IMG/VR virus record: IMGVR_UViG_3300038312_000193
Origin: a virus
Length of the DNA: 64,000 nt
Reading direction: 5' to 3' (one strand)
This document shows positions 2,471-61,725 of the stretch, piece after piece (position 1 is the stretch's first letter; every line of letters starts with the position of its first letter). The position numbers and the translations under genes are program-made. The notes under the pieces were generated by a model. It saw nothing but the letters and a program-made list of their open reading frames with translations. It was not told where the DNA came from and searched no databases.

Positions 2471-2716
2471 AAACCCTCCTTTATGTAAATTAATTTTATA
2501 TCTTATTAATAAAATATACAAACACTAGTTCTTTTATTATAATAGCTAAATTAATACAATAAAATTTAAGAAATAATTAAAAATAAACTCTTAATTATAT
2601 ATTCTATTTTAAAACTCTTTATTTGATAAAACAATTTAAACTTATCCTCTTTATCTTCTTTTATTTTTTATTATTCGACAAAGTTTTTAAAATAATATTT
2701 TTATTTATTATTTTTT

Positions 2717-3009: not shown

Positions 3010-3176
3010 CTGCTACTCAAAATATAGACAAATATACTCATTATCCATATCGAGATTTTTACTGCTTCTTCCTGTATGCTTTCATACTGATAAATCAGAT
3101 ACTACTCACAAGTTCTTGTACAGTCCACAGTCGTAAATTCCCGACTAGCCATCGGTACACACTTATGATAGCTTTA
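3010..3176 (-). ncRNA. TnpB omega-RNA scaffold / IS607-type right end
   Basis: GTACCGATGGCTAGTCGGGAATTTACGACTGTGGA...GAAGCAG...TTTTGAGTAGCAG immediately 3' of tnpB. Confidence 0.75.
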
Positions 3177-7912: not shown

Positions 7913-8305
7913 AACTATTTACCCCTTCCTATTATATTGATTTAAATCTACAGTTTTATGCAGACTTCTCTTTCAATTGTTCTAACAGCTCTATTGTACT
8001 ATCAATTTCTTCTTTCTTAATCACATTCCCTGCTGCAAACTTATGTAATTTACTTGTTATTATTTTAATTTGATGCCAATAATCTTTGGTTTTTTAGGTA
8101 GAACTTCGCCATATTTAATGCTTCTTCAGGTGTATTTCCTTGACTACTACAAATTATTCCATCATTAACCTATACATCACAAATCCAACCTACTTCATTA
8201 TTAAAATAAATTTTATAAGTTTTATGTTTCATGCTCTTACCCCTCTCTGTTATTATATTTTTATTTTAATGCAATATGTGTTAATTTGTCAATGCTTAAC
8301 TTAAT

Positions 8306-30793: not shown

Positions 30794-31292
30794 AATGGTA
30801 TTAGTTCCTCCTTTTATATGGTATATAATTTGTGGCGTATGCATAGCATAGGTAATTATATTATAGCATAGTTGGTTGTGATTTGCAATTTGTTTATATT
30901 ATAGATATAATGGGATTTATAACTGTATTAGTTGAAGTAGTACAGTTAATACAATATTACTTCGATGGCAAATTTCCTGTTATCAAATCCGAATATTTAG
31001 AAGTTTATCTAAATATCTAAATATTATTCGTTTGGGCGTATTCTGGCAGGTTGTGGCCTGATACTATGAGTAGATACCAGGATTAATCAGGATCAATTCT
31101 ATATCATTAGTTTGTGCAGCTTAACCCGTATTTATTCCCTTCATTCCTGCCATAATGCAGGATAACACATATTATCTAGTATTAATTAATAGCTTGTAAA
31201 TGGCTATATATCGGTATTTGTAGCTATATTCAAACATTTATTACATTACCAATATATTATTATCCAGGCTAGACGGGGGTACTTTACAAAAA

Positions 31293-31319
31293 GAACAACC
31301 GTTTGTAGAACAGATGTTT
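31293..31319. promoter_or_regulatory. Tandem LexA-like boxes
   Basis: GAAC-AACC-GTTT and GAAC-AGAT-GTTT, 15 bp apart. Confidence 0.45.
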
Positions 31320-31765
31320 GCCTATCTCTTCTATCAACAGACTATGAAAATTTTTCATACCGACAATCTTAATTCTTTCAACAAATACCCATCGTTCTAA
31401 TTTCGTTTAATACCCCAACCTACAAAACATCCTATAACTCCCAACCATCTTAAAATCAACCTTATCAACTCCTAAACCATCTATATAATCAAAATTCAAA
31501 CCCACTCAAACGCCCAATGAATCAACATTTACAACTATTCCTTTACTCAACTACTACTATATATAATAACAATTTCACCGAATCAACTTTTAACCTATCT
31601 AACCAATCTAAAAACAACATTCTATTAACAACCAAAATTCCTTTAAAATCCTACTATTTAACTAACTCTAACATATAATTAACGCCCACTCTGGATTAAT
31701 TCACCGACAACCAACTATCAAAATAATCATATCTAAAAAAATTTCACATTTATTTTATAATTTTC

Positions 31766-31794
31766 TTGACACTTCTAATATTATCTTGTATTAT
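31766..31794 (+). promoter_or_regulatory. sigma-A promoter of the recombinase
   Basis: TTGACA-17-TATTAT. Confidence 0.7.
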
Positions 31795-31832
31795 TATATT
31801 AATAATTTAACTAAAACAAAGGAGATAACAAA

Positions 31833-32720
31833 ATGATCAATAATAATGAACCCAATCCAAATCCTTTAATCCAATACACCCAACATTTAATCCAACAAAA
31901 TAAATCCACCAATACAATTAAATCTTATACTAAAGATATAACATCATTTTTTGCTTATTTCAACCAAACTCATAACATACCTCAAACATTAACTCGTTCT
32001 CAAATCATCCAATACAAACAACACCTACTTACTACAAAAAATAATGCTAAATCAATTAATCGTACCTTATCATCTTTAAAATCCTATAATGAATTTCTAG
32101 TTTTCACACATCAACAAAATGAAGTGGTTGTATTATCTATAGACTATATTAAAATTCAAAAACAACTTGTATCTCCTACTAACACTTCTACTAAAGATGC
32201 TATTCGTTTTATGGAGAAGGTAAAAAAGAATGAACCTATAAGAAATTACTATATAGTTGCCTTACTATTAAATACTGGTCTTAGAATATCTGAAGCATTA
32301 AGTATTGAATTGGATGATATTAATTTTAAAAAAGAAAATCTAAGGGTTATCGGCAAAGGATCAAAACAAAGAATTATTCCTTTAAATAAGAAAGCAATTG
32401 AAATTATTAAATTGGTGATTGAAGATAGAAAAAATTATAACTATGCTTTGAATAAATTAAATAGTAAGTATTTATTTCTAAGCAATAAAAGTGAAAAATT
32501 AGAAAGTTGCACTATTGAGAGAATATTCAATAAATATAGTAAGACTATTACACCGCACAAATTGCGTCATTGTTTCAGTTCTAATTACTTAGAAAGTGGA
32601 GGTAGCATTCGGGAACTTCAATATATACTCGGACACTCCAGCTTAAATACAACTTCTATTTACCTTAATCCAAATGAAATAAGTATGCACAGGAATATAA
32701 ATAATAGTTGTATAGGTTAA
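31833..32720 (+). CDS. XerC/D-like tyrosine recombinase
   Basis: TGLRISE, GKGSKQR, PHKLRH and LGHSSLNTTSIY: complete catalytic set. Confidence 0.95.
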   Translation: MINNNEPNPNPLIQYTQHLIQQNKSTNTIKSYTKDITSFFAYFNQTHNIPQTLTRSQIIQYKQHLLTTKNNAKSINRTLSSLKSYNEFLVFTHQQNEVVVLSIDYIKIQKQLVSPTNTSTKDAIRFMEKVKKNEPIRNYYIVALLLNTGLRISEALSIELDDINFKKENLRVIGKGSKQRIIPLNKKAIEIIKLVIEDRKNYNYALNKLNSKYLFLSNKSEKLESCTIERIFNKYSKTITPHKLRHCFSSNYLESGGSIRELQYILGHSSLNTTSIYLNPNEISMHRNINNSCIG

Positions 32721-32756
32721 TAATTTAAAATTGATTAACTTTTGCCACAGGCGTTA

Positions 32757-32855
32757 TCATCATTAATTGTAATTTGCTGGTTCAAACTTCCCGACAAGCG
32801 GGTCGCTTTCACCTAGCAAATTTGCACAATTACTGATGAATCGGCTAAAGCCGAT
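32757..32855 (+). ncRNA. Structured intergenic element
   Basis: Long interrupted stem with an inner CCCG/CGGG hairpin, followed by ATCGGC-TAAA-GCCGAT. Confidence 0.45.
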
Positions 32856-32923
32856 ATTGATATTTTTATTTATGGAACCAATTCTAATATTATATGTCTA
32901 ACTAATTAGAGTATATATTTGTG

Positions 32924-46030: not shown

Positions 46031-46482
46031 TAAATTAAACAAAAATACTGCTTACGAGTGAGGCAGTTTGTATATTAATTCAAATATGGGGAGTCTGTTG
46101 ATTCCCCGTTACCTAAATTAATGGGAACTGACTACCTACAGGAGCAGTTACCTATCTAATTCTACTTAACAATGCGCTATAGGCGTAATAATCTAGTAAC
46201 CAATAGGATGTACACAAAACTTAACAGGTGTAATTCTATATTACATGGCTCTTCATAAACAGAACTAAACAAGCCTCTTAATAATGCTGAAATAGTTTAG
46301 TCGGAAGGATAGTTTTGCCTTGAGGTTATATCGAAAACGGGAATTGACTTATTTATATAGGCAGTTACCCGTTTTTTAAATTGAATAGGGTTGAAATCCC
46401 GAACAAAGAAGAAGTGGGAGATGACTTTTGCATTTACCCACTTTTATTATTTATAACTCCAATTTAATTAAAGGAGAATTAT

Positions 46483-47676
46483 ATGGATGTAAATAAAAAA
46501 GAAAATGAGAGTAATTTTGATTATATTATTCGGCTTGTAGATGGTAAATCAAATGGTTTGTACGATATAGATTATACTGAATTATTTAAATTGGGGTTCG
46601 GTGTTGAGTTAAACCCAGACGAATGTAGAAAAAGGTACTACGGGTTAAAAATGATACTTCCCTATTTGGATAATGAGAAAGTTAAAAATATTACTGAAGA
46701 TGATATTTTAAAAGAATATGAATTAAAGAAAATTAACTTTGAGAAAGAGAAAATAAAATTCCAAGACCAAAGGCGTGAATATTTTAATCTTCTAAGAGAA
46801 AGTGCTAGATTAGACCATATTAAAGAACACATAGAAAAAGTTGCTTTAGATGTTTCTAAACAAAAACCTTTAGAATGGGAACCAATTTATAAATTTGGTA
46901 AATATAAAGAAGGTATACTTTTAATTTCAGATTTTCACTTTGGTTTAGAAATTGAGAATTTTTTAAATACATATAATAAAGAAGAATTTTTAAAGAGAAT
47001 TAATAGATTGACTATGAAAACTATAGAATATGGTAAATTTCATGGTATTAAAACACTTCATGTTGTAAATCTTAATGATCTTGTATCAGGATTAATTCAC
47101 GTTACCGTTAGAATTGCAAATACTGAAGATGTGATTGAACAAACTCAATTTATTTCAGAGATTTTAGCAGAAGTATTATGTAAATTTGCAAATGAATTTG
47201 AAGAAGTTAATTTCTATAGTGTTTTAGATAATCACAGTAGGGTCACACCTAATAAAAAAGAAGCAATAGATAATGAATCTTTTGCTCGTTTTATTCCTTG
47301 GTATTTGAAACCTAGATTAAAAGATATACCTAATATTTCTATTATTGAAAACGAACTGGATAGTAGTATTGGGGTTATTGATGTTTGTGGGTATACTTGT
47401 TTTGCGGTGCATGGGCATCAAGATAGTGTAAAAAGTGCTACTTCTGATTTAGCAATGATGGTTAAACAATTTCCTGATTATGTGTTTTTAAGTCATTATC
47501 ATCATAGTCAAGAAGATGAAATACATAGTTGTGAAGTTATCGTAAATTCTAGTCTATGTGGAACAGATGAATATGCTAAAAGATTAAGAAAAACTAGTAA
47601 ACCAGCACAAAAATTCATGGTTTTTAATGAAGAAGAAGGAAGAGAGTGTACTTATTCAATTAGATTAGATAGATAA
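46483..47676 (+). CDS. Calcineurin-like metallophosphoesterase
   Basis: SDFH, ND, NH, HGH and HYH. Confidence 0.85.
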   Translation: MDVNKKENESNFDYIIRLVDGKSNGLYDIDYTELFKLGFGVELNPDECRKRYYGLKMILPYLDNEKVKNITEDDILKEYELKKINFEKEKIKFQDQRREYFNLLRESARLDHIKEHIEKVALDVSKQKPLEWEPIYKFGKYKEGILLISDFHFGLEIENFLNTYNKEEFLKRINRLTMKTIEYGKFHGIKTLHVVNLNDLVSGLIHVTVRIANTEDVIEQTQFISEILAEVLCKFANEFEEVNFYSVLDNHSRVTPNKKEAIDNESFARFIPWYLKPRLKDIPNISIIENELDSSIGVIDVCGYTCFAVHGHQDSVKSATSDLAMMVKQFPDYVFLSHYHHSQEDEIHSCEVIVNSSLCGTDEYAKRLRKTSKPAQKFMVFNEEEGRECTYSIRLDR

Positions 47677-47712
47677 TATAAATTAACTTTGGAAGGTTAA
47701 ATTGGTGTGTCT

Positions 47713-47976
47713 ATGCCTGATTTATTAATAGGATTATTTAGTGGATTATTGCTCGGAATCATTATTGAAAAGTATATATTCCCTGCTTTAGATATATTGT
47801 TTGAAATATTTACTGCAAAAACCTCTAAAGAAATAACAGAACATAATTTAAATATACAAGAAATGTCATGTGAATTGCTTAGAGCATATCCTGAGTTGAA
47901 AGATGGTAATGTTGTAGAACAAACTAATGCAATAGGTTTTAATATTATCGATGATTATGAATATGAAGAAGATTAG
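47713..47976 (+). CDS. small membrane protein
   Basis: N-terminal hydrophobic helix. Confidence 0.55.
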   Translation: MPDLLIGLFSGLLLGIIIEKYIFPALDILFEIFTAKTSKEITEHNLNIQEMSCELLRAYPELKDGNVVEQTNAIGFNIIDDYEYEED

Positions 47977-48191
47977 TTTCTTAATTAAAATGATATTACA
48001 ATTTTAAAAAAGTAATAATTTATTTCATTAATATAATTTAAAAATTAGTTAATAGAAGAAGGTAGATTTAAGTAAATTTAATAAAAATAGGTTGAGAGTC
48101 GCTATCTTAACTGACAAGAGTGGGATACCTTACACCCACTCTTTTTTATTATAAAAATGTAAGGGGTAATACTGGTAAGGAGTGTTGGAGA

Positions 48192-49121
48192 ATGGGTAAG
48201 TGTTTAACATTTGAAGAAGTGAAATATTATATTGAAAGTTTAGGTTATATTTTAATTGATATAATATATATTAATATTTTTTCAAAAATAACTTTTAAAG
48301 ATATAGACGGTTTTTATTATTATTTACATATAAGTAATTTAAAAAAGGGATTTATTCCCAGTAAATTTCACAAATCTAATCCTTATACAATTCAAAACAT
48401 AAAACTATGGTGTAAATTAAACAATAAACCATTTGAATTATTAAGTGAAGAATTTAAAGGTGCAAATAAAAACCTTAAATGGAGATGTTTAAAAGAAGAT
48501 TGTGGAGAGATATTTGAAGCAAACTGGAATAAAATCATAATAGATAGAGGTTGTCCTTTTTGCGCAGGACATCAAGTAGGTTTATCTAATTGTCTAGCAA
48601 CTAAAAATCCAGAACTTGCGTCTGAATGGCATCCAACCAAAAATGATGATTTAACTCCATATGATGTGACTTGTGGAAGTAAAAAATACGTATGGTGGAA
48701 ATGTAAAGAGTGTGGTTTTGAATGGGATGCAAGTATTGTTAATAGAAGAAATAATGGTTGCCCAAAATGTGCTGAATCAAAAGGTGAAAAAAGAATAAGT
48801 AAATGGTTGAATTTAAATAATATATCCTATTGTAGAGAATTTGTTTTTAATAATTTATTAAGTGATTTAGGAAATCCATTGAGATATGATTTTGCTATAT
48901 TTGATAATGTAGATAAAACACAATTAAATATGTTAATTGAATATGATGGGAAACAGCATTATGAATGGGTTAAAGGCTTTTATACAAAACAAGATTTTAT
49001 AAAAATACAATATCACGATAAATTAAAAAATGATTATTGTATAAATCATAATATAAAATTATTAAGAATTCCTTATTGGGATTTTGATAATATTGAAGAG
49101 ATTTTAGATAAGGAATTCTAA
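48192..49121 (+). CDS. Free-standing Zn-ribbon plus PD-(D/E)XK/Vsr-like (homing-type) endonuclease
   Basis: LASEWHPTKN...WWKC, SKGE, RYDF, IEYDGKQH and LLRIPYW. Confidence 0.8.
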   Translation: MGKCLTFEEVKYYIESLGYILIDIIYINIFSKITFKDIDGFYYYLHISNLKKGFIPSKFHKSNPYTIQNIKLWCKLNNKPFELLSEEFKGANKNLKWRCLKEDCGEIFEANWNKIIIDRGCPFCAGHQVGLSNCLATKNPELASEWHPTKNDDLTPYDVTCGSKKYVWWKCKECGFEWDASIVNRRNNGCPKCAESKGEKRISKWLNLNNISYCREFVFNNLLSDLGNPLRYDFAIFDNVDKTQLNMLIEYDGKQHYEWVKGFYTKQDFIKIQYHDKLKNDYCINHNIKLLRIPYWDFDNIEEILDKEF

Positions 49122-49156
49122 TTAAAATATTAAAAGAATAAAAGGAGATTAATATA

Positions 49157-49525
49157 TTGAAATTAACAATTAGTACCTATTATAATAATGAGTCTGGTGA
49201 GTATCTTACAACTAAATTCTATATAGATGGTGAAGAATGTAGCGAAGAAGAATATTGCGAAATATTAGAAGATTTGAATAATATAAATAATGAAGTTGAT
49301 TGTGATGGTAATTGTGAAGAATGCCCTAACAATAAATATGAACAGGAACAAGAAGAAAATCAATTTCTTCGTGCAGTAACAGATGCAGTTAATGATACTT
49401 TAGAAATGTTTGAAGATGAAAATACTTGTGATGATTGTAAATTTGAAGCATTGATGGGGTTAGTATTTTTAGGTGTAAACGGTGCATTACAAGGATGTGT
49501 GATAAAAGATAGTGGTTTTAATTAA
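49157..49525 (+). CDS. acidic Cys-rich hypothetical protein
   Basis: AGGAG SD; CDGNCEEC. Confidence 0.6.
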   Translation: MKLTISTYYNNESGEYLTTKFYIDGEECSEEEYCEILEDLNNINNEVDCDGNCEECPNNKYEQEQEENQFLRAVTDAVNDTLEMFEDENTCDDCKFEALMGLVFLGVNGALQGCVIKDSGFN

Positions 49526-49535
49526 ATATTGCTTA

Positions 49536-49570
49536 AATGCCCTGTTGGTTTACTAACCAGGGCATTTTGT
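49536..49570 (+). terminator. hairpin, probable terminator
   Basis: AAATGCCCTG...CAGGGCATTTT. Confidence 0.55.
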
Positions 49571-49745
49571 CATGCATTTAATTATGAAATGCCATGAAAT
49601 TATGGTTTGATGATAATATTTAGAAATATAAATATGTTTATTTTAGAAGAGAGGTTTTTAGGGGTCGCTCCCCTATTCTCCGTACCCTCTCTTCTATTTT
49701 TATTTAAAGGGTTAGTACGGAGAAATAAAAATGTACGGAAAGAGG

Positions 49746-51068
49746 ATGATAAAGATGCTATTAACAAAAGAAGTTGAGGTTCAAGTAGTTGGAGGTACTT
49801 TAAAATACTATAGATCATTGGGTTATGATGTAAAGTGTAATGATAAAATATTAGTTAGTGTCTCAGATTTAAAGAAACGTTCAAAAGAAATGGTAAAAGT
49901 ACAATGTGATGATTGTGGTAAAGTGTTTGATTTTCATTTTGATGCTTATCGTAAATATAGAGATGATTTTATTAATTGTAAATATCAATGTAGAGATTGT
50001 GAAATAAAAGAAATATGGGATAGGGTTAAAGATGAATGTGTTAATTTGAATTTTACTTTAATTAGTGATATATCACATTATAAAACACATAAAAGTGAAG
50101 TTAAATTTATTTGTAATAATCATAAGGATTATGGAATTCAAAAAGTTACAGTTAATACTTTATTAGTTAAACATTGTGGATGTAAATTATGTGCTAATGA
50201 GAAAAAAGCGAAATCTAAAGTATTAGAATTTGAGTTAGTTAAATCTAAATTTGATGAAGTAGGATATATTTTATTAGAAACAGAATATATTAGTGCAAAA
50301 ACTCCGATGAGATATATTTGTCCTAAACATCCTGATATAATTCAGAAAATAACATATGATAAACTAAGTCATGGGCAAGGTTGTAAATATTGTGGATACG
50401 AGAAAATAGGTAAACATTTTAGACATTCATTTGAATATGTTTGGGATTGTTTTAATGATAAAAATTTAATCCTTATAGATGATGACTATAAAAATGACAC
50501 ACTTCCTTTAAGATATATATGCAAAAAGCATAGAAATAAAGGGATTCAAACAATTACTTTTAGTAGTTTAAAGGTAAGTGATTTTGGTTGTAAATATTGT
50601 GCCATAGAATATAGAGCATCTTTAATGAGTAAAGGTGGTGTAACCCCTTTACATAATTATTTACGAGAAAGAATTAATTCTTGGAAAGAAGATAGTATTA
50701 AGAATTATCATTACAAATGTGTATTAACGGGTGGACGATTTGATGTGATTCATCATTTATATGGATTTAATATGATTTTATTAGAAACATTAGATAACTT
50801 ACGTTTATCAATTCATCCGCAAGTAGGTTTATATACAGACAATGAATTATTATTAATTGAACAAGAATGTTTAAAGTTACATTATAAATATGGATTAGGT
50901 GTATGTTTGTGCAAACCTTTACATAATTTATTTCATAAATTTTATTCTAAAGGAGAAAATACTCCAGAACAATTTGAAGAATTTAAACAAAGATATTATA
51001 ATTTTGAATTTGATGATTTATTAGACAATAAATATAAATATAAGAATATCCTGTCTAAAGTTAGTTGA
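49746..51068 (+). CDS. Free-standing HNH endonuclease with repeated Zn ribbons
   Basis: Repeated C..H/GC..C units; C-terminal VIHHL...GVCLC..LH..FH. Confidence 0.8.
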   Translation: MIKMLLTKEVEVQVVGGTLKYYRSLGYDVKCNDKILVSVSDLKKRSKEMVKVQCDDCGKVFDFHFDAYRKYRDDFINCKYQCRDCEIKEIWDRVKDECVNLNFTLISDISHYKTHKSEVKFICNNHKDYGIQKVTVNTLLVKHCGCKLCANEKKAKSKVLEFELVKSKFDEVGYILLETEYISAKTPMRYICPKHPDIIQKITYDKLSHGQGCKYCGYEKIGKHFRHSFEYVWDCFNDKNLILIDDDYKNDTLPLRYICKKHRNKGIQTITFSSLKVSDFGCKYCAIEYRASLMSKGGVTPLHNYLRERINSWKEDSIKNYHYKCVLTGGRFDVIHHLYGFNMILLETLDNLRLSIHPQVGLYTDNELLLIEQECLKLHYKYGLGVCLCKPLHNLFHKFYSKGENTPEQFEEFKQRYYNFEFDDLLDNKYKYKNILSKVS

Positions 51069-51087
51069 TTAAAAGGTGGTGGTGATA

Positions 51088-52122
51088 ATGCCAAAATTAG
51101 GTAAAAAACCTTATATTCCCAAAAAGGATTTAAACTTAACTTGTGCAGCATGTGGGGAATTAAAAAAGGAAACAAATTTTTACACTAGTTATAATCCTAT
51201 TCATCAAACTGGACGTATCCCTTACTGCAAGTCTTGTCTTAAAAAAATGATTAGTGATGAAAAAGGAAATGTAACAATAGATAAATTACAGTCCACTCTT
51301 CAATTAATGGATCGTCCGTTTATTTTTGATCTTTGGAAAATATCTTTAGAAGGTAAAATGGATAGTTTTGGTTGCTATATGAAAAATTTAAGTCTTAAAC
51401 AAAATCGTGAACTTACATGGAAAGATTCTGAATTTAAACCTCAGTTAAATAGTGGATTAAATTATGATAAAACATTAGATGTAGATATTAATAATAATGA
51501 TAATAATGATGTTAATATATCAGAAGATTTAATTGAAAAATGGGGTTTTGGATATACCGAACAGGAATTATCTTTATTTGAAAAGAAATGGAAACAACTT
51601 ATAGATAATTACGGTGAAAAAACATCTTTTCATATAGAAGGATTAAAAACATATATAAGATTTAGAGTTAAAGAAGAATTGGCAACCGCAAAGGGTGAAG
51701 TCAAAGATGCAAAAGAATGGGCAGCAATGGCTAAAGATGCTGCTACTGCTGCAAAAATTAATGTTTCACAATTATCAAAATCTGATATTAGTGGTGGAGT
51801 AGATTTACTTCCACAATTATTTGAGGCAGTTGAATCAGAAGTAGGTATAATTCCTATACTACCTTATTTAAAAGAACAACCTTATGATGATGCAGATTTG
51901 ATTATTTGGACTATTGTTAATTATATAAGAAGATTGGAAGATAAACCAAGAATTGAATATAAAGAAATTTGGAATTTTTATGATCAAATGCTTTCAGATT
52001 ATTATAACCAAAAGGGTTATTCAAATGAAATGGTGCAAAAAGAAAAAATAAAAAGAAATAACGTATTTAGAGATTTAGGAGAAGTTTATAAAGAACCTGT
52101 TTATGAAGATGGTGATAATTAA
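51088..52122 (+). CDS. Putative terminase small subunit
   Basis: Overlaps TerL; N-terminal CxxC...CxxC; position as in SPbeta. Confidence 0.55.
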   Translation: MPKLGKKPYIPKKDLNLTCAACGELKKETNFYTSYNPIHQTGRIPYCKSCLKKMISDEKGNVTIDKLQSTLQLMDRPFIFDLWKISLEGKMDSFGCYMKNLSLKQNRELTWKDSEFKPQLNSGLNYDKTLDVDINNNDNNDVNISEDLIEKWGFGYTEQELSLFEKKWKQLIDNYGEKTSFHIEGLKTYIRFRVKEELATAKGEVKDAKEWAAMAKDAATAAKINVSQLSKSDISGGVDLLPQLFEAVESEVGIIPILPYLKEQPYDDADLIIWTIVNYIRRLEDKPRIEYKEIWNFYDQMLSDYYNQKGYSNEMVQKEKIKRNNVFRDLGEVYKEPVYEDGDN

Positions 52123-53876
52123 TGCCCTCTTATGCTAATTTTGAGAGTAAAAATAAAAAATATACTAAAAATAGATATGATATTTATGAACCAGCTTTTG
52201 AAACTCCTTTAAAAGCATCTGAATATAATTCAAATATAATTACAAGAAATATACAGGACTTTTCTGAAGTATGTTCTTTTCTTCGTTGGATGCCAGATAT
52301 TTTTTGGGATATGTATAAACCTGAAAATGGTGGTTTAGTTTTTGATTTACACCAAAGAGTAATGATTAGATTATTAGCAAGATTTCCCGAAAATTATTTT
52401 TGCGCTCCTAGAGGGATTAGTAAAACATTAATTCATGTAATGAACCAATACTGTACGGCCTGTTGTTTCCCTGGAGTGTCTCTCTCGATCACAGCTTCAA
52501 CCAAAGAACAATCGGTTAAGATTTGGAAAGATAAACATGATGAAATTCTAAGATTTTATCCTTCGTTTGCTGAAAATATTAGATCGGCAACCTTTTCCAA
52601 AGACTCTGGAAAAGTTGAATTTGTAAATGGAAGTGTGGTTGATAATCTTGCAAATTCCCAACAGAGTAAAGGTTTGAGGAGGCACAGAGGTGGTCTGGAA
52701 GAAAGCGCATTAATTGATAAAGATACATATGATGATTGTATTGAACCAATTTTTAACATTGGTAGAACTACAATGACTAGTGAAAATGATCCAGAAGAAT
52801 TGAATGGACAAATTAATAGATATAGTACTTCAGGTTATAAAAATAGTGATGAATATGAAAAAATTATAACTATTGCAAAAAATATGGTTGATTTAAAAGG
52901 GTCATTCGTTTTTGGTTCAGATTGGTTTATACCTGTTCATTTTGGTAGACAAAAGAAATCAACTATAGATAAAGCAAGAAAAAGTAATATAATTCGTTTT
53001 AAACAAAATTACTTATGTGATTGGGTAGGAGTAAGTGATGGTGGTTTAATTAATATTAGTAAATTAATTAAAGCTAGGACTATTACTTTACCCGAATTAG
53101 AATGTCCAAGAGATAAAAGAGGAAATTATGAATTATGTGAATATGTATTAGGTGTTGATGTAGCAAGAAGTTCTTCAGAAAATAATAATAAATCAGCTAT
53201 AGTTGTTTTAAAAATTATTAGAAATCAATCAGGATTAATTAGGCAAATTCATATTGTCAATATAATAACACCCCCAAATGGTTTGAATTATGAAGAACAA
53301 TCGGTAATAGTTAAAAGAGTTTTTTATCAATATGGTGGTAATTTAGATATTGGCAAATCTAGAGTAAAAGCTATCGTGGTCGATGGGAATGTAATTGGGC
53401 AGGGGTTAGTTGAAAAATTATTGGAAGATGTAACCGATTTTGAAACTAATCAAGAATTAGGGTGTTTTGCAACTATTAATACAGATGATAAACCGAAAGT
53501 TAAAGATGCACCTCCTTTTGTTTATGTTTTAAAAGCACAAGGTATTAATGGTGATATTATTAGAGAGTTTATAAATTATGTTGAGTCCAATAAATTAAAA
53601 TTAGTGAAGTCTTTTGATGATATTAAACAAAATATACCAAAGGAGATTAATGAAGAAATAATAGAAACTATTTGTTTACAAACACAATTATTAATAGATG
53701 AAGTAGCAAATTTAAAACTAAAAAAAACGCAAAATTCAATAACCGTAGAGCAAGTAGTTAAAAGGGTCGATAAAGATAGGTATTCAGGACTTGTTTATGG
53801 TTTGTATTACATATCTATGTTTTTAGAAGGAGAACAAGATGATTCTGATTATGATTTTGTTTTTGCATCATCGTAA
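52122..53876 (+). CDS. terL: Terminase large subunit
   Basis: APRGISKT, KGLRRH..LEESA, STSG, LGVDVAR and DKDRYS. Confidence 0.9.
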   Translation: MPSYANFESKNKKYTKNRYDIYEPAFETPLKASEYNSNIITRNIQDFSEVCSFLRWMPDIFWDMYKPENGGLVFDLHQRVMIRLLARFPENYFCAPRGISKTLIHVMNQYCTACCFPGVSLSITASTKEQSVKIWKDKHDEILRFYPSFAENIRSATFSKDSGKVEFVNGSVVDNLANSQQSKGLRRHRGGLEESALIDKDTYDDCIEPIFNIGRTTMTSENDPEELNGQINRYSTSGYKNSDEYEKIITIAKNMVDLKGSFVFGSDWFIPVHFGRQKKSTIDKARKSNIIRFKQNYLCDWVGVSDGGLINISKLIKARTITLPELECPRDKRGNYELCEYVLGVDVARSSSENNNKSAIVVLKIIRNQSGLIRQIHIVNIITPPNGLNYEEQSVIVKRVFYQYGGNLDIGKSRVKAIVVDGNVIGQGLVEKLLEDVTDFETNQELGCFATINTDDKPKVKDAPPFVYVLKAQGINGDIIREFINYVESNKLKLVKSFDDIKQNIPKEINEEIIETICLQTQLLIDEVANLKLKKTQNSITVEQVVKRVDKDRYSGLVYGLYYISMFLEGEQDDSDYDFVFASS

Positions 53877-53909
53877 TATAAATATCTATAGAAAGGAGGT
53901 TTCCTTTTA

Positions 53910-55496
53910 TTGAGTGAAAAAGAAAGTGGTTTTGATATTGAAGTGAATTCATTAAGAGATATGAATTATTATTTATCTGATACAACTTCTAATCCAAAAT
54001 ATTCTATGGAAAACTTAAAACAATACATTAAATATCCTATGATTTATAACAGGATTTTAAGAGTTATATCAAAACAAGCATATTATTCTAATGGATTATA
54101 CGGAGAATCAATAGATAGAATGGTATCTTTACCTACATTATCTTATATAACTACTTTACGAAATAAAATAGGTAAAATGAAAAATTTCAAAAGTAGATTT
54201 AATTATGTGCTTAAATTATTAAATATTGATAGGTCAACTAGGGATATTCTTAGAAATTTATTTATAGAAGGTATGTCAGTTAGTATTTTACGGGATACAA
54301 CTGCATCAAATAAAAATATTGATACTTCATCTGGTTCAATTGAAACAATAGATAGATTAGAAGGTTTATCACTTAATGATAATTTTATGCTTCAACCATT
54401 AAATAACGATTATTGTAAAATTGTAGGGTTTCAAAATAATGTAAGTATTGCAGCGTTTGATATGCAATACTTTGATCAATTTAAACATGGTGGATTAGTG
54501 CATGAAATTAAGAATTACCCAAAGGAATTTATTAAGGCATATACCGAATATAAAAGAGATGTAAGTAAAAGATGGTTTATTCTTGATTATAAAAAGACTA
54601 TTGCTTTAAAAGCAAAAGCTAGTGAGTTAGATGCTTTTGGAATTCCTTTTGGAATATCGGCTTTTGTTGATATAAAAATGAATGATGAATATGGTAATAG
54701 TCAATATAAATTAATTCAAGAGTTAGCTAGTAGTATATATTATTTAATACTTCCTGAAGGAGAAAAAGCAGGATCGTGTAGTCTTAATAAAACTCAGCAG
54801 GAAAATGTAATTAAAGCATTTGAAAATGCAGTTAAATTAAACACAAATGCTAATAGTAGTGCAAAAATTTCTACACTATCACTAGCACCAGGAACAAAAA
54901 TAGATAGATTATCAAAAGACAGTTCGTTACTTAAAGATACATTAAATGAAGAAAATATGAAAAAAATATCTACAAATTTAGGTTTTGCTATATCTGCTTT
55001 AAATGCAGAAAGTCAAAATGCTAATTTAGGAAGTTTACAGATTAATTTAGATTTAATATCTGCACAAATATTTCAATATGTAAACGAAATAGCAAAAGAA
55101 CAAACTAGGGTGATTAACGAGCATTTAGGTGTTTTACCTAGAGATTATATTGATATTAAATACTTACCTATAACTTGGCTAAATAGAAAAGATGTATATG
55201 AAAAAGCAAAAGATTTATATATGACTACTGGTGGAAGTAGAATGTTTTATATTGCAAGTGCAGGTTTTGATCCTGATGATTATTTAAGTATTTGTGACGA
55301 AGAATTTGAGGCAGGATTAGATGAAAAATATCTCCCTCATATTACTAGTTATACTGCAACAGATAGTGCCGATAAAGTTAATCCTGAAGGAAATTTTGGA
55401 GGAAGACCGTCAAAGGATATCAAAGATTTGAAAGATTCTGGTTTGAAAACTAGAAATTTTAAAAATAATGAACAAAAAGTTAAAAATAAAAAATAA
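53910..55496 (+). CDS. Portal protein
   Basis: Size and position after TerL; FGIPF motif; C-terminal GGRP. Confidence 0.75.
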   Translation: MSEKESGFDIEVNSLRDMNYYLSDTTSNPKYSMENLKQYIKYPMIYNRILRVISKQAYYSNGLYGESIDRMVSLPTLSYITTLRNKIGKMKNFKSRFNYVLKLLNIDRSTRDILRNLFIEGMSVSILRDTTASNKNIDTSSGSIETIDRLEGLSLNDNFMLQPLNNDYCKIVGFQNNVSIAAFDMQYFDQFKHGGLVHEIKNYPKEFIKAYTEYKRDVSKRWFILDYKKTIALKAKASELDAFGIPFGISAFVDIKMNDEYGNSQYKLIQELASSIYYLILPEGEKAGSCSLNKTQQENVIKAFENAVKLNTNANSSAKISTLSLAPGTKIDRLSKDSSLLKDTLNEENMKKISTNLGFAISALNAESQNANLGSLQINLDLISAQIFQYVNEIAKEQTRVINEHLGVLPRDYIDIKYLPITWLNRKDVYEKAKDLYMTTGGSRMFYIASAGFDPDDYLSICDEEFEAGLDEKYLPHITSYTATDSADKVNPEGNFGGRPSKDIKDLKDSGLKTRNFKNNEQKVKNKK

Positions 55497-55529
55497 TAAT
55501 ATGATCAATTAAGGGGGTGAGTGTATTTT

Positions 55530-57050
55530 GTGAGTAAGTTTATATTAAATAATCAGTACATAGAAATATGCGAAATGCCTGAAGAAGAATTGGCAGGACG
55601 CAGTAAAATCAAAATGTCAGCCCTAGAAATAGTGCCAGATAATTCTTCTTATAATGATAATGGTATAACATGGTTAAGAGAATATATAGATGCAAATATT
55701 AAATCCGCAATTGGAATGCCCTATGTTGTTTCGTGGTTAGATGAAGAAAATCAAATTCCTTCAGATCATGGAATAATGAATTTCGATGATGAAGGTAATG
55801 TTGTTTTTGATGGTGTAACCGTTGGAACTGTGCTAGATGCTTATATTGAAGATATTGAAATTGATGGTGAAACTAAAACTTTATTAATGACAGAGGGATT
55901 TATATATCGTCAAAGATATCCTAAATTTGTTGATTGGTTAAAAACTGAAATTGAAAATGGTAAAATTTATGGTTCTATTGAAATCAATGGTAAAGGTGAA
56001 TCTAAGATAATTGAATATTTAGATGGTTCTACTAATTCAGATGGTACAAAAAAAATGGGTCGTATACCTACAGAGTTTGATTTTTCAGGATTAGCCATAT
56101 TATATCTCACTGATCCTGCTGATAAAAATTCTATTGTTTTTGAAGTTAATTCAAAAGAAGGTGAAAATAAAAATATGGATATAGTAAATAAAGGTGTAAC
56201 TATTGAAATGAATAAACTTAATTATTATGATATTTGCACGTTAATTACACGTGCTTTTAATAAAGCAATGGGTTGTGATGATTGCTACTGTTGTGATTAT
56301 GATATTTATAGGTTTTATCCAATTGAATCACAAGTTATTTTTAACAAATGGCGTGAAGTAGGTATTTATTATTCAACTACATATAAGATTGAGAATTCAG
56401 CAGTTACAATTGGGGAAATAATTAAAGTACAAGAAGATTGGACTCCAACTGCCGATTCTCAACCTGTAGAAATAAATATAAATCAGATTAAAAAAATAAT
56501 TGCTGAACAAAATCAAAAAGGAGGAACAGAAGTAATGAATGTTGAGGAATTAAATGCTAAAATCGCTGAATTAAGTTCACAATTAACTGAACTGAATAAT
56601 AAGGTAACTGAACTTAATTCTGTGAATGTTGAAAAGGATAATAAAATAGCAGAACTTAATGAAGCACTTGTAACCGCTAACAAGTCACTTGAAGAAGTTA
56701 ATGCTAAATATTCTACACTTGAAGTAGAAACTAATGAATATAAGGAAAATTTAAATAAAATTGAAACTGAAAAGAAAAAAGCAGAAGTAAATTCTTATTT
56801 TGAGGTTGAAATTCCTAAAAATAAATTTGATGAAGTAGAAGTTAATTCTCTAAAAGAGTATGTTGAAAAATGTGATCTTGAAGGATTAAAGAAAGCTGAA
56901 GCGGATTTAATTGTTAAAAGGTTTAAAGAAGGAAAATTAACTGGTATTGAAACTAATTCAACAAAAGAAGAAAATAATATTTTCTTCCATACTAAAGAAG
57001 AAAAGATGGATGAAAACTTAGTAGATGCTGGCAAAGCATTATTTGTTTAA
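55530..57050 (+). CDS. Prohead protease/scaffold protein
   Basis: YNDNGITW, DHG and GSIEI, followed by a long coiled coil. Confidence 0.7.
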   Translation: MSKFILNNQYIEICEMPEEELAGRSKIKMSALEIVPDNSSYNDNGITWLREYIDANIKSAIGMPYVVSWLDEENQIPSDHGIMNFDDEGNVVFDGVTVGTVLDAYIEDIEIDGETKTLLMTEGFIYRQRYPKFVDWLKTEIENGKIYGSIEINGKGESKIIEYLDGSTNSDGTKKMGRIPTEFDFSGLAILYLTDPADKNSIVFEVNSKEGENKNMDIVNKGVTIEMNKLNYYDICTLITRAFNKAMGCDDCYCCDYDIYRFYPIESQVIFNKWREVGIYYSTTYKIENSAVTIGEIIKVQEDWTPTADSQPVEININQIKKIIAEQNQKGGTEVMNVEELNAKIAELSSQLTELNNKVTELNSVNVEKDNKIAELNEALVTANKSLEEVNAKYSTLEVETNEYKENLNKIETEKKKAEVNSYFEVEIPKNKFDEVEVNSLKEYVEKCDLEGLKKAEADLIVKRFKEGKLTGIETNSTKEENNIFFHTKEEKMDENLVDAGKALFV

Positions 57051-57072
57051 TTAATAAAGGAGGATAATAAAT

Positions 57073-57918
57073 ATGAGTCTTTTTAAATTTCAAAATTATA
57101 GTGCAATAAAAAATGTTAAAGATAATCCTAGAGTAAAGGCAACTCAGATTACCAAGAATGGTTATGCTTTTGGTATTGCCGCTTATACTTCTGGTGGAAC
57201 AAAATCTAAGGTAGAAATTACTGTTGCTGGTACTACTCCTGCGGATGGTAATATCATATTTGATATTGGTGGGCAAAGAGTATATACAAATATAGCAGGA
57301 TCAACTCAAACTACTGCTGCCTTGGTAGCTGCTGAAATTAAAGCCTCTTTAGATGCAGTGTTACTTGGTTTATCATATACAGTTGCTATTTCATCTGCAA
57401 AGATTACTGTAACTGCACCTGCAAACGGAGTTAGTATTATTCCTGTAACTGTTGATGGTGTAAATATGGGATTAAGTGCATGTACTCTTTCGATGACATA
57501 TACTGCTGGCACTGATGCCGTATCTTATGACGAAGCTGCCGTTCCTTTTGCTGATGATGCCGCAACTAAAGCAGGGCAGGTTTATGTTGCTATGAATATA
57601 ATTGATAAACCTGAAACTATTAATACTTCTGATTATCAAGTTGAAATTGGAGAATATGTTAGATCAATCAATCTTAACAATATGATAGATGAATATGTTG
57701 AAATATCTAGTGATTTATGCACAACTGCTTTTACTAGTGTAAACGTTGGAGATATTTTAGTTCCTATTCCTTCTGGTACTAATAATATGAAATGGGAAGT
57801 AACTAGTGCCACTGGTTATAATGTAGTATTAGTGGTTAAAAAGAAAACTCCTTTTGGAGCATTTACTATTGATGGTTCTTCTGATGGTGGGTATCTCTGT
57901 CAGATTTCGTCAAATTAA
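57073..57918 (+). CDS. Head decoration-like protein with an inserted beta-rich domain
   Basis: Between scaffold and capsid genes; A/T/G/V-rich middle. Confidence 0.55.
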   Translation: MSLFKFQNYSAIKNVKDNPRVKATQITKNGYAFGIAAYTSGGTKSKVEITVAGTTPADGNIIFDIGGQRVYTNIAGSTQTTAALVAAEIKASLDAVLLGLSYTVAISSAKITVTAPANGVSIIPVTVDGVNMGLSACTLSMTYTAGTDAVSYDEAAVPFADDAATKAGQVYVAMNIIDKPETINTSDYQVEIGEYVRSINLNNMIDEYVEISSDLCTTAFTSVNVGDILVPIPSGTNNMKWEVTSATGYNVVLVVKKKTPFGAFTIDGSSDGGYLCQISSN

Positions 57919-57944
57919 TAAAATAAATGTAGGAGGTAAACAAT

Positions 57945-59315
57945 ATGTTTGACATAAAGAGTATTAAAGTTGAAGCACAAAATGTAGAAGTTAATTCTGC
58001 AATGAAGAAAACTCAACCTAAAAACGAAGGAGTAGAAATATTCTCTGCTATTTGTACTGGTAAAGATTTAAGTAGATATGGTAAAAAAGTTGATTCAGTT
58101 ATGGCATATATGACAAATTTAGGACAAAAAGCAGTTGATGGAGATATCCAGGCAAAAGCCGAAATAAATGCAATTAGAACTCTAATGATTGAAGCACCTT
58201 TGGTAAAAAGATTAAATATTTTTGATTTTATGGGTGAAAAAATTAGTGTTGGTTTCGATGAAGAAGTAAGATTTAAGGTTTATCAACTTCAGGGAACTAA
58301 ATCTAGTACTCAGGCTAATAGTGGTAGTTTCCCGTTTGCAACTTATAATTGGAGAACCCAAGTAATGGATGAATTTAAGACTATTACTGGTGGTATTTTA
58401 GTTGATTATAGAGAAGTTGCATCTGGTAATACTGATGCTATTAATGTAGCAAACGAGCAAGTTATTACTGATATGTTAAATCAGATGTTTTATCAGGTAT
58501 TGGTTGCTTATTACAATGGTATTAAAGGTGCTACTAGTTTGAAAAATTTTGTTGAAGCATCAGGTATAACTAAATCTGCTCTTGACGCAGTAATTAAGAA
58601 AGCACGTAGATTTGGTAATTTAACTATTACTGGTGATTATTCTGTAGTTTCTCAACTTGAAGATTTTGTTGGATTTACTACTACTACTAATACAGTACAG
58701 TTCTCTGAAGCAGTTATGGAAGAAATACGCAAAACTGGTATGCTGAAATTCTATAGAGGTTTAGGAGTTGTTGAAATTCCTAATACTTATAATTTGACTG
58801 AACTTAATAGTGGTGCAGATTTCTTTGAAACTTATCTGCCTGAAGGTTTACTTTTAGTATTGCCTACTGGTGCAATTAGTCCTTTGAAGATTGGTGTAAA
58901 GGGTGGTTTAACTTCATTGTCTGCTACTGATATTAATCTTAAATCAGAAGTCACACGTTTCGATATGGAATTCGGTAGATTTTGTGCCGCTTAATACAGT
59001 AATGTATTAATGATAATCCCTGAAAAAATCTGGAACCCTAAGTCGTAATTTGATATGGGAATCAGAGGTGAAGGTTAATTTTCAAAGATTAACCAGCCGC
59101 AACGCATACGGATTGAAACTACAATGTAGAATATAATATCCGCAAGAGGCAGGGACATCCCATGTGGATGAAAAGATATGCTGAACTTATAGGAAACTAT
59201 AAGAACTAGAGGATAAAAAACCTTTAGGATAACAAAATTGACAGAATTAATAAAAGAGTATATACCTATGGTTGGGTTAATATCTGATTCAGATTATGCC
59301 GTAGATAAAAGATAA
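57945..59315 (+). CDS. Major capsid protein, spliced: join(57945..58976,59241..59315), 368 aa
   Basis: Exon 1 ends ...RFDMEFG; exon 2 is TELIKEYIPMVGLISDSDYAVDKR*, in phase 0. Confidence 0.85.
58977..59240 (+). ncRNA. Group I intron (264 nt, no ORF)
   Basis: U at the 5' splice site. P1 CGGU/GCCG, P10 UUUUGU/ACAGAA, P3 UCCCUG/CAGGGA, P4 UCUG/CAGA, P7 GCAUA/UAUGC after AAGA; terminal G. Confidence 0.9.
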
Positions 59316-59425
59316 TTTAATAATGTAATTATTTTTAGAGGGATAGGGTAGCTCCCGAAAGTGTAATCTCCAATACATTTCCCTCTTTAATTATTAATTG
59401 GAGTTTATTATATGGAGGTAATAAA

Positions 59426-60529
59426 ATGTCTAAAAAACTTACGTATGAATATGTAAAAAATTATATTGAGCAATTTGGATATAAATTAATTAGTATAGAG
59501 TATTTAAATGCTCATCAACTTTTAGAAATTGAATGTGATAAAGAGCATAGATATTTCGCAAAATTTAATAATTTTAAATCAGGTAAAAGATGTCCAGAAT
59601 GTGCAAAACTTAATAGAGGTAATAATAGAAGATTGTCATTTGAATTTATTAAAAGTGATATAGAATCAAATGGAATTTTAAAATTATTATCGGATAATTA
59701 TAAAAATAATACTACTTTATTAACTATTAGATGTTTACATGGACATGAATTTAATATTAGATATTGTGATTTAAAAAGAAACCATATACAATGTCCTATA
59801 TGTAGGAAAGAACAAATTGCTAAAGATTATGCGTTTACTTATGAAGAAGTTAAAACGTATATTGAAAGTCAAGGTTATGTATTATTATCTACAGAATATA
59901 AAAACAATACTATCCCATTGTTAGTAAAATGCCCTAATGGTCATATTTACTATGTCAAATACAGTAATTTTAGAGATGGTAAAAGGTGTAGGATTTGTTC
60001 TATGAAAGAAGCAGGATATAAAAAAAGACTTACTTTTGAACAAGTTAAAAAATATATTGAATCTTTTGAAGGATATAAATTATTATCTACTGAGTATAAA
60101 ATTGCCAGTAGTAAATTATTAATTAAATGTCCAGAAAATCATATATTTGAATGTTCTTTTAATAAATTTAGAGATGGTCAAAGATGTCCAATTTGTAAGG
60201 AATCTAAAGGTGAACAAAGAGTAAGAGAATATCTTGCCAATAACAATATACCATTTAAAAGACAGTATATATTTGAGGATTGTAGAAATATTGAACCATT
60301 AAGATTTGATTTTGCGGTGTTTGATTCTGAAAAGAATTTAGTCAAATTAATTGAATATGATGGTGAGTTTCATTATTTACCAATAGAAAGCAAGAGTAAA
60401 TTAAGGTATCAACAAAAATTAGATTCAATCAAAAATAATTATTGTCAAAATAATAATATAATATTATTGCGTATCCCCTATTGGGATTTTGATAATATTG
60501 AAAATATCTTATTAAAAGAAGTTAGTTAA
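59426..60529 (+). CDS. Free-standing Zn-ribbon-repeat plus PD-(D/E)XK/Vsr-like endonuclease
   Basis: Four TYE.VK.YIE...C..GH...G.RC..C repeats; SKGE, RFDF, IEYDGEFH and LRIPYW. Confidence 0.85.
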   Translation: MSKKLTYEYVKNYIEQFGYKLISIEYLNAHQLLEIECDKEHRYFAKFNNFKSGKRCPECAKLNRGNNRRLSFEFIKSDIESNGILKLLSDNYKNNTTLLTIRCLHGHEFNIRYCDLKRNHIQCPICRKEQIAKDYAFTYEEVKTYIESQGYVLLSTEYKNNTIPLLVKCPNGHIYYVKYSNFRDGKRCRICSMKEAGYKKRLTFEQVKKYIESFEGYKLLSTEYKIASSKLLIKCPENHIFECSFNKFRDGQRCPICKESKGEQRVREYLANNNIPFKRQYIFEDCRNIEPLRFDFAVFDSEKNLVKLIEYDGEFHYLPIESKSKLRYQQKLDSIKNNYCQNNNIILLRIPYWDFDNIENILLKEVS

Positions 60530-60566
60530 CAAATTAAATTTTTATGATTAAAAGGAGACTTATTTT

Positions 60567-61725
60567 ATGAGTATTAATATGGATACACGTTCATCAATTA
60601 AAAATTTATGTCCTTGGGCAGTAAGTTTTAGATTGCCTAATTCAAATGGTGATGTTTATTTAGAAGCAAATAAAAAAACAACTATTAATAATGGAGAATT
60701 AGTTACTTTAATAGAAAATAATAATGTTCTTTTTGTTGGAACTGGAAATGGTAATCATGCTCGTATTTATGTTGATAACCCTGAAGTACGAGTATATGTT
60801 GGTTTTGAGTCAGAAGATGGTAAAGAAAAACAATTTGTTTTAACCGATGAAGAATGCCAAAAATTATTTGATTACAAAACATTTGGTACTTTTAAAAAAC
60901 ATATAGAAGAAAATGTTGTTGCCAATCATGAGAAACATAAAATAATGGAATATGCAAGAAAAATTAAACTAAATGACTATGATAAGATCAGTTTTTTAGA
61001 AAGTCATTGTGGTATCCCATTTAAGGAATAAGGAGGTTATCACTTATGGGTACACCTCTTCAAACTTTATATACAAGATTTCAAACAAAAGTAGACGAGG
61101 ATTTAACTGGAAAAGAATCTTTAATTTTTGCTTTAGTGGATGTTGCTATAAGTAAATCCGATAAAACATGTATTCATGGTTTAACTTACGTTTTAACTGA
61201 TCCAGAAGCAAATCCATTAACTTATGATGGTAATTTTGATGAAAGTTTAAATAATGATGAAATAGAATTGCTTTCTTTGTGGATGAAATATGAATGGAAA
61301 AATAGAAAAGTATCTAAACTTGAGGCACAAGAAAGAGATATTGGCACTAGTGATTTCAATAGATTAGAAAATAAAGCAACTTTACTAAAAGAATTACGTT
61401 CAGGAGTAAAAGAAGTTTTAGACGAAATAAATTCTTTAAAAAATGATATGAATACTTATCAATATAATTAAGGGGTGATATTTTGAAAGAAAGCATACTT
61501 ATACAAGTGCCTGTATCTGGTGAAATGACATTATCGGATGTATGTGATAAAGAATGCCGTAAATTGCGCTCCTTATTATATTTACTTGAAAAAGAATTTA
61601 ATACAAAAATGATTGAACATTCTGAGATTAGAAAATTTATATTAGATTCATCTAATTTTATTCAACGTATTCCAGATATGGTTTCTGAGATTGTAAAGGT
61701 TGATGTAAATGGAAATAAAAAATGA
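60567..61725 (+). CDS. three head-completion-region genes (60567-61031, 61046-61471 adaptor-like, 61483-61725)
   Basis: Position after the capsid gene; SDs present. Confidence 0.55.

Follow-up and report, generated by a model that had tools for sequence, protein, structure and literature searches.

A structured leader RNA ahead of viral late-region nuclease genes: an int-alpA-type family that may act as a translational brake

A homing endonuclease has to be made in amounts that let it spread and yet do no damage to its phage; how such a balance is struck is, to our knowledge, understood mainly in the T4 group. The question is raised by a stretch of 64,000 nucleotides from a virus (IMG/VR record IMGVR_UViG_3300038312_000193; "the window" below means this whole stretch), whose late region holds three nuclease genes, each headed by a structured leader RNA. 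Why should three nuclease genes share such a leader, and what does it do for them? We name the leaders W1, W2 and W3 after their order in the window, and compare them here with relatives from other uncultured phages. The comparison indicates that the leaders belong to one RNA family, most of whose members carry a loop complementary to two boxes downstream, the second of them on the ribosome-binding site (RBS). Our preferred reading, to which we give a probability of about 0.6, is that each nuclease gene forms a mobile cassette with its own leader, which would act in cis as a translational brake and possibly also by attenuation of transcription. The leader most likely keeps nuclease production low.

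The leaders in the window and their relatives

The W1 leader core (48083-48150, plus strand) is predicted from its sequence, its folding score and two family models (R1 and R2, below) to be a three-way junction. Its closing helix, P1, is weak and made of A and U; the joiner J12 (AUA, 48087-48089) leads into the long hairpin P2 (48090-48112, with the loop GUCGCUA at 48098-48104), and the joiner J23 (GAC, 48113-48115) into P3, a G+C-rich hairpin of 9 base pairs (bp) at 48116-48143 with a loop of 10 nucleotides (nt) at 48125-48134. A run of six U residues follows directly 3' of P3, from 48144. The W3 core (59337-59390, plus strand), placed by sequence, fold, model R2 and a P2 hairpin shared with a known RNA, is compact: a P1 of 7 bp (59337-59343 with 59380-59386) encloses two arms, namely P2, GGG-UAGCU-CCC at 59346-59356, reached through a J12 of UA, and P3, which follows a J23 of GAAA and has 5 bp (59361-59378) and a loop at 59366-59373; its 3' tail is weak as a U run. 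The W2 core (49645-49705, plus strand; sequence, fold and model R2) has a P1 of 10 bp (49645-49654 with 49686-49695), an inner hairpin GGGG-UCGCU-CCCC at 49659-49675 (loop UCGCU, 49665-49669) and, with no separate P3 hairpin, a single-stranded 10-mer at 49676-49685 that opposes the boxes; a U-rich run (49696-49705) comes after P1.

Predicted folding of the cores is far stronger than that of shuffled sequences, with z = -4.1 (W1), -5.3 (W2) and -2.1 (W3). An earlier note, made from the sequence alone, had proposed a structured leader in front of all three late-region nucleases, and this holds: the leaders lie where it placed them, fold well and are related to one another. Their stems carry G.U pairs on the plus strand, which points to an RNA of the sense strand. 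By eye W1 and W2 resemble intrinsic terminators, with a stem and a U run, a likeness that the earlier note had not remarked on; a simple terminator scan did not pick up the leaders, the loop of W1 being 10 nt long and the stem of W2 branched. A search of the window for tRNA and tmRNA genes returned none, and blastn against deposited phages found no close relative of the window.

The same layout was found in IMG/VR contigs upstream of homologous nuclease genes. In these relatives a purine-rich P1 strand is followed by AUA, a P2 closed by G.U, GA plus one base, P3 and a U-rich tail; P3 begins with AAG and is predicted to stack on the return strand of P1, and its loop matches two later boxes. A pattern built on the commonest P2 loop occurred in at least 118 further contigs, with both stems present in 54 of the matches listed. 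MAFFT alignments of the leaders misaligned P3, and the family model was instead seeded from six members of equal length (alignment A4) and extended by realignment with Infernal: the resulting model, R1, gathered 61 matches, 56 of them distinct (alignment A6), from which the model was rebuilt as R2. Among the 56 distinct relatives 98.0% of cells are paired, compared with 74.8% for shuffled partners and 50-64% for slid partners, a margin that is large even though an alignment fitted to the structure favours such scores. Changes on both sides occur in 12 of the 15 pairs, and none of 500 shuffles reached the observed covariation score; covariation in homologs, whose absence the earlier note had named among the outcomes that would refute it, is present in these stems. 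The bases that hardly vary are few: (A)UA and GA(N)A at the junction, and AAG at the start of P3.

When R2 was run without filters over both strands of the entire window, its top three matches were exactly W1, W3 and W2, the next scoring 13.9 bits (E = 0.55). W1 reached 43.9 bits as a member of the training set, and 23.7 bits (E = 0.0012) with R1, which was built without it; W3, from outside the training set, reached 27.2 bits (E = 2.8e-4). W1 and W3 are members of the family, and W2 looks like a degenerate member that has lost its P3 stem. A pattern scan of bacterial and archaeal genomes gave at least 120 loci, and R2 confirmed none of the 100 on which it was run; these loci appear to be chance matches, and the scan says little about prophages.

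At gathering scores the only Rfam match in the whole window is RAGATH-18, which lies elsewhere, and in E-value mode the three sites and the canonical relatives gave chance-level matches, with no riboswitch or self-cleaving ribozyme among them. The self-cleavage that the earlier note wished to see assayed accordingly finds no backing: none of the ribozyme families gave a match, and conserved bases in the junction are few. Our literature search returned no description of the leader, though a large survey of virus RNAs (PMC10690425) may include it.

Loop-to-box pairing and the likeness to int-alpA RNAs

In all three leaders an exposed segment is complementary to two boxes near the RBS, as had been noticed at first reading. 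In W1 the P3 loop segment CCUUACA (48128-48134) complements box 1, UGUAAGG at 48158-48164 (7 nt, plus strand), and box 2 at 48175-48182 (plus strand), in which GUAAGG (48175-48180; 6 nt) is complementary and overlaps the Shine-Dalgarno (SD) sequence AAGGAG; box 2 with the SD sits 10 nt 5' of the ATG, the start codon being at 48192. The single-stranded 10-mer of W2 has a perfect 10-nt complement in box 1 (49715-49724, plus strand) and a 7-nt one (49733-49739) in box 2 (49733-49746, plus strand), which runs into the SD AAGAGGA ahead of the start codon at 49755. Box 1 of W2 contains GGAGAA and, with an in-frame ATG 6 nt farther on at 49731, could itself be an SD, in which case a protein longer by eight residues is possible. 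In W3 the pairing strand is the P3 segment CUCCAAU (59368-59374), which is the complement of box 1, AUUGGAG (59397-59403, plus strand), and pairs more weakly with box 2, AUGGAGG (59412-59418, plus strand), which is the SD of the gene starting at 59426. This second box holds an ATG (59412) that opens an out-of-frame reading frame of 14 codons (59412-59456) overlapping the main start; leader peptides were considered, and no consistent small reading frame was found among the relatives.

How far such matches exceed chance was measured in the window with dinucleotide shuffles of the downstream stretch, as the probability of a match at least as long as that observed. For the longest match this probability is 0.25 (W1), 0.002 (W2) and 0.095 (W3), and it falls to 0.09, 0.0004 and 0.009, respectively, when as many boxes are required. 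Within the window the loop-to-box match is significant for W2 alone, and the case that the pairing is real rests on the relatives.

Among 54 distinct members of the family, the longest perfect complement of the P3 loop within the next 90 nt of the same member averages 6.57 nt; when loops are set against the downstream sequences of other members the mean is 4.47 +/- 0.19 nt, with a maximum of 5.02 over 300 permutations. Two boxes are present in 41 of the 54. Box 1 lies about 10-25 nt past the junction, box 2 starts at a median distance of 12 nt upstream of the start codon, and the median spacing between the boxes is 16 nt. The box sequences differ widely from member to member and, in those with an upstream TAnnTTTG element, are neither SD-like nor purine-rich, which argues that selection acts on the complementarity and not on a purine tract. 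The earlier note had spoken of a pseudoknot switch that masks the RBS. Masking stands as the natural reading, because the second box is on the RBS, where it stays through sequence change; the term "switch" does not, no trigger being known.

A described RNA with the same plan, a match that the earlier note had not made, is int-alpA (Rfam RF02996, gathering score 35.8 bits), for which our literature search found no published function. Its model gives no match in the window at the gathering score, none with E <= 10 at W1-W3, and none on the long-armed relatives. We then looked at genuine int-alpA RNAs, of which 151 Gammaproteobacteria genomes yielded 19 matches in 12 genomes (18 inspected). These have a G+C-rich P1 of 8 bp, UA, a P2 of 3-4 bp, GAAAA and a P3 with a pyrimidine loop; their P2 loops read GACG, UAGCU, UCGCU, UGAUCA or CUAGCUAG, and they too have boxes, one about 10 nt after P1 and a second at the SD, both being present at loci L330, L331, L332 and L335. 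The anatomy of W3 is exactly this one, and its hairpin GGG-UAGCU-CCC recurs in L335 and L336, while the inner hairpin of W2 is close to the GGG-UCGCU-CCU of L340. The order of P1, UA, P2, a GA-rich joiner and P3 is present in W3 and W1, and in W2 P3 is reduced to a single strand. One gammaproteobacterial locus, L341 (1514-1570, minus strand), scores 33.6 bits with RF02996, just under its cut-off, and 28.9 bits with R2, and by these two scores it bridges int-alpA and the long-armed leaders.

The differences are of composition, arm length and cargo. Unlike those of int-alpA, the helices of the window leaders are rich in A and T; in W1 and most relatives P2 is long (6-8 bp) and its loop has 7-10 nt; and the genes behind the sampled genuine int-alpA RNAs match no Pfam family, whereas those in the window are homing endonucleases. 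On present comparison the window leaders belong to a branch of the int-alpA type that is AT-rich, has long arms in part of its members and lies beyond the reach of the Rfam model.

Genes behind the leaders, transcript ends and mobility

The W1 gene (48192-49121, plus strand; 309 residues) encodes a protein with treble-clef zinc fingers and a PD-(D/E)XK-like C-terminus, recognized by Pfam DUF4379, PHROG 559/9084 and its translation. The W2 gene (49755-51068, plus strand; 437 residues; PHROG 681/12131 and translation) combines zinc-ribbon repeats with a C-terminal HNH motif, and the W3 gene (59426-60529, plus strand; 367 residues; Pfam DUF4379, CapR and DUF2726, PHROG 559) zinc-ribbon repeats with a PD-(D/E)XK-like C-terminus. 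Domain matches and translations thus agree with the earlier assignment of the three free-standing genes to two nuclease families, HNH and PD-(D/E)XK, that have zinc-ribbon repeats in common. A fourth nuclease-like gene of the window, an HNH gene in the early region (13510-14268, minus strand), abuts the gene upstream and has no leader. Behind 20 members of the leader family Pfam recognized HNH_3 with NUMOD4, GIY-YIG with NUMOD3, PDDEXK_5 and DUF4379/CapR zinc-finger nucleases, together with one tyrosine integrase and one TnpB, while several genes matched no Pfam family; in all, the leader heads at least four families of homing endonucleases, in many uncultured phages. The leader of the integrase gene is at L113 (5088-5152, minus strand) and that of the TnpB gene at L197 (9119-9178, minus strand), both in uncultured phages. 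The earlier note's suggestion of an RNA that partners the nucleases loses its footing here: such a role is unlikely because the proteins behind the leader (HNH, GIY-YIG, PD-(D/E)XK, integrase and TnpB) are unrelated.

Directly upstream of the leader about 40 of the 54 members have a promoter-like element, compared with 10% of random positions: a -10-like hexamer in 21 members and, in 19, TAnnTTTG, which we take to be the -7 element of Bacteroidota. Behind the junction, 39 of the 54 have a U-rich tail (random positions, 7%). From these two features together the leader would usually be the 5' end of the cassette transcript, and it is usually terminator-like.

Evidence on mobility comes from contigs of four metagenome runs compared with 46400-61100 of the window, which show that the forms described below exist and not how frequent they are. 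In contigs of three runs the W1 cassette, leader and gene (47941-49132, plus strand), is absent, position 47940 being followed by 49133 with 77 other letters between. A close relative lacks the W3 cassette (59316-60539, plus strand): in a 3.2-kb contig from run X2, 59315 is joined to 60540 with 56 other letters between, and an X4 contig likewise skips the W3 region. Both joints remove leader and gene together, and little else. Since these relatives lack the W1 and W3 cassettes with the leader included, the leader travels with the gene. In a further X2 contig only 21 other letters separate 47670 from 50973; the part skipped (47671-50972) comprises a small gene, the W1 cassette, an open reading frame at 49157-49525 and most of the W2 nuclease gene, so that this whole block varies among relatives.

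Because the element marks the 5' edge of a mobile unit, it might be thought a signal in the DNA, either a recombination or nuclease-recognition site of the cassette or an operator with three copies of the box. The box does occur three times, once inverted, and the palindromes found in the P2 loops of relatives (below) resemble protein-binding sites. Yet the many G.U pairs in the stems would be A.C mismatches on the other strand, the inverted box is always in a hairpin loop and box 2 always at the RBS, the palindromes are placed asymmetrically within their loop, and the unrelated proteins of the cassettes could not all read such sites. We consider this reading very improbable.

The simplest account would be that the leaders are ordinary terminators of the genes upstream, followed by ordinary RBSs, and that the complementarity and the loop letters arose by chance in AT-rich DNA. 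W1 and W2 do end in good terminator-like stems with U runs, the shuffle tests confined to the window are weak for W1 and W3, and a pyrimidine loop that resembles an anti-SD will pair with any SD. Against this, the junction bases, the order of the arms and the two-box layout recur ahead of homing-endonuclease genes across dozens of unrelated contigs, accompanied by compensatory changes; many members have boxes that do not resemble an SD; the leaders are deleted along with the nuclease gene in relatives; and the gene upstream of W2 has a separate terminator of its own at about 49538-49572. Chance is an explanation to which we give scarcely any credence, and we set it aside on the comparative data, that is, covariation, matches to the member's own downstream sequence, and the joint absence of leader and gene.

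Several other features of the window may be recorded. The RAGATH-18 RNA (3059-3131, minus strand; 70.3 bits, E = 4.9e-12) sits immediately 3' of a TnpB gene (3177-4217, minus strand) with OrfB_IS605 and a Cas12f1-like TNB domain, and it may be part of the guide (omega/re) RNA of that TnpB. A tyrosine integrase gene (31833-32720, plus strand) is followed by a G+C-richer, hairpin-rich intergenic stretch (32740-32870) that holds another GGGUCGCU hairpin at 32800-32810 and might function as an attachment site or encode a small RNA. On the 5' side of the integrase gene, 31260-31830 forms about 600 nt with no open reading frame of 80 or more residues; its composition is by eye strongly skewed, with abundant C and A and very little G. 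A block on the minus strand codes for a DndB-like protein (829-2148), a C5 cytosine methylase (6186-7082), the leaderless HNH protein (13510-14268) and a protein with a GmrSD N-terminal domain (20656-21693).

A probable brake on nuclease production, and what speaks for other roles

How might such a leader act? In the cis mechanism that we favour, the leader would fold in the int-alpA manner, from P1 through UA or AUA to P2, through GA(N)A to P3 and back to P1, and the exposed pyrimidine loop of P3 (in W2 the junction strand instead of a loop) could pair with either of the two near-identical boxes. When the loop held box 2 the ribosome would be blocked, and when it held box 1 the RBS would be free. 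Box 1, transcribed first and an equally good partner, would then be a decoy, so that the leader would set a partition between open and closed messages and not a full shut-off. A nuclease that may do harm would in this way be translated at a low, fixed rate. P3 of W1 and P1 of W2, each with its U run, might in addition serve as a terminator that stops part of the transcripts before the gene. Of these functions translational masking is the best supported, because box 2 stays on the RBS while its sequence changes freely. Repression of translation by the pairing, the occurrence of termination and a purpose of limiting the dose of nuclease are points that we infer from the sequences.

A precedent for such a brake is the restraint of homing endonucleases in T-even phages, where expression is limited by sequestration of the RBS and by internal terminators, the cases reviewed being I-TevI, I-TevII, I-TevIII, segB, Aeh1 mobE and T4 mobE (PMC2988022). 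The kind of gene is the same, as is the apparent purpose (a low nuclease level), and the masking of the RBS by RNA pairing and a lowering of transcript numbers by terminators would also be common to both. In T4, however, a simple local hairpin encloses the RBS, which is freed by a late promoter situated in that hairpin (PMC2988022), whereas here the loop of a three-way junction would pair at a distance with two alternative boxes, and the leader is a conserved, portable RNA family in front of several families of nuclease. The window leaders have no local RBS hairpin of the T-even type; when they were folded at full length, the SD of W1-W3 did not fall within a strong local stem.

Several observations weigh against the cis brake. 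First, the fit of W2 to the family is marginal (18.7 bits with R2, E = 0.035) and uses another assignment of the helices, and the complementarities of W1 and W3 are not individually significant in shuffles confined to the window. Second, in all three window leaders box 1 is the better partner, so that a leader acting in cis might mostly hold the decoy and leave the RBS free. Across the family the boxes are iso-energetic, with a mean difference in predicted duplex energy of 0.0 kcal/mol; the stronger box is box 1 in 16 members and box 2 in 13, and the two are equal in 10. Third, an efficient terminator within a late operon would exert polarity on whatever genes follow, and termination must therefore be partial or bypassed. 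Finally, a cis brake leaves unexplained the self-complementary loop of P2 in the relatives.

That loop was examined in a set of 21 relatives found by protein homology and then by the model, blind to the P2 loop. A perfect self-complementary word of 6 nt occurs in 18 of the 21 (shuffled loops average 3.3), in six different versions that all start with U and end with A, and in none of the 21 P3 loops. Typically the loop has 9 nt: two bases, then the 6-nt word, then an A that closes it. Because the third and fourth positions of the word are adjacent and cannot pair within the loop, selection for the word points to pairing between two copies. That the GU(C/A)GCU loop, to which the earlier note drew attention, defines the leaders is not supported, since most relatives have a different, self-complementary hexamer in its place; the letters U(A/C)GCU do recur in genuine int-alpA RNAs. 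The loops of the window hold no perfect 6-nt palindrome: four of six positions could pair in W1, AGCU alone in W3 and nothing in W2. A partner for the non-palindromic UCGCU loops was sought in the window, where their complement AGCGA is rarer than expected and no convincing site was found. Two contigs carry two leaders each, with different boxes: the words are UAGCUA and UAAUUA in L096 (1493-1557, plus strand, and 3945-4007, minus strand), and in L137 UAAUUA (8054-8125, minus strand) and a loop containing GUAC (2599-2672, minus strand). In form alone, the 9-nt loop of the relatives, with its varied word and kept self-complementarity, is like the dimerisation initiation site of HIV-1 SL1, a kissing loop; the window loops, not being palindromic, lack this likeness.

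The loop gives its force to another mechanism, in which the terminated leader of about 65 nt acts in trans as a dimeric antisense RNA: P2 loops would join two copies, whose two P3 loops would occupy box 1 and box 2, and repression would rise with the level of the cassette transcript. This mechanism accounts for every conserved feature, from the upstream promoter and the U-rich tail to the iso-energetic boxes and the P2 palindromes, and it fits the observation that cassettes within one phage (L096, L137) differ in both palindrome and box code. It also resembles the c4 RNA of phages P1 and P7 and the CI RNA of P4, which are small structured RNAs encoded upstream on the same strand, with loops that pair with repeated sites, one of them at an RBS; in those systems specificity shifts by matched substitutions, and the RNAs, once released by RNase P, work in trans in immunity. 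The likeness extends to the leader's position upstream on the same strand, its structure and the pairing of a loop with repeated sites, one at the RBS. On the other side, the window loops GUCGCUA, UCGCU and UAGCU are not 6-nt palindromes and could form 4 bp at best, genuine int-alpA RNAs often have a plain GACG or GACA loop, and the Rfam C4 model gives no match with E <= 10 at W1-W3. We regard action in trans as unlikely, though it is the main alternative, and its specific form, in which released leaders pair tip to tip through their P2 loops and the dimer clamps both boxes of the nuclease message, as slightly less probable still. If true, it would be an RNA counterpart of a dimeric repressor on two operator half-sites, giving each cassette a private, dose-dependent brake coded by its box sequence and its palindrome.

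It might also be that a protein or ligand chooses between the box 1 and box 2 states, the leader being a riboswitch, a site of nuclease autoregulation or a target of a host or phage RNA-binding protein. The near-invariant (A)UA, GA(N)A and AAG could be read in this way, and two balanced alternative pairings look like an expression platform. The conserved bases are nevertheless too few for a small-molecule pocket, and no known riboswitch was matched with Rfam; autoregulation by the product is unlikely, as the downstream proteins are unrelated, and so is a common host protein, as the hosts seem, from the two kinds of promoter-like element, to belong to distant groups. Taken together, these points make a protein or ligand site improbable.

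The cis brake, limiting translation and possibly transcription of the nuclease, thus remains the reading that we prefer. Whatever its mode of action, the leader appears as a portable RNA module, found with at least four nuclease families, an integrase and a TnpB, and behind two kinds of promoter-like element. Its anatomy, with a pairing loop, a decoy box, an RBS box and, mostly, a second loop that can pair with itself, offers a concrete and easily tested model of what int-alpA-type RNAs do. Should that model be true, the family would constitute a set of naturally orthogonal translational brakes.

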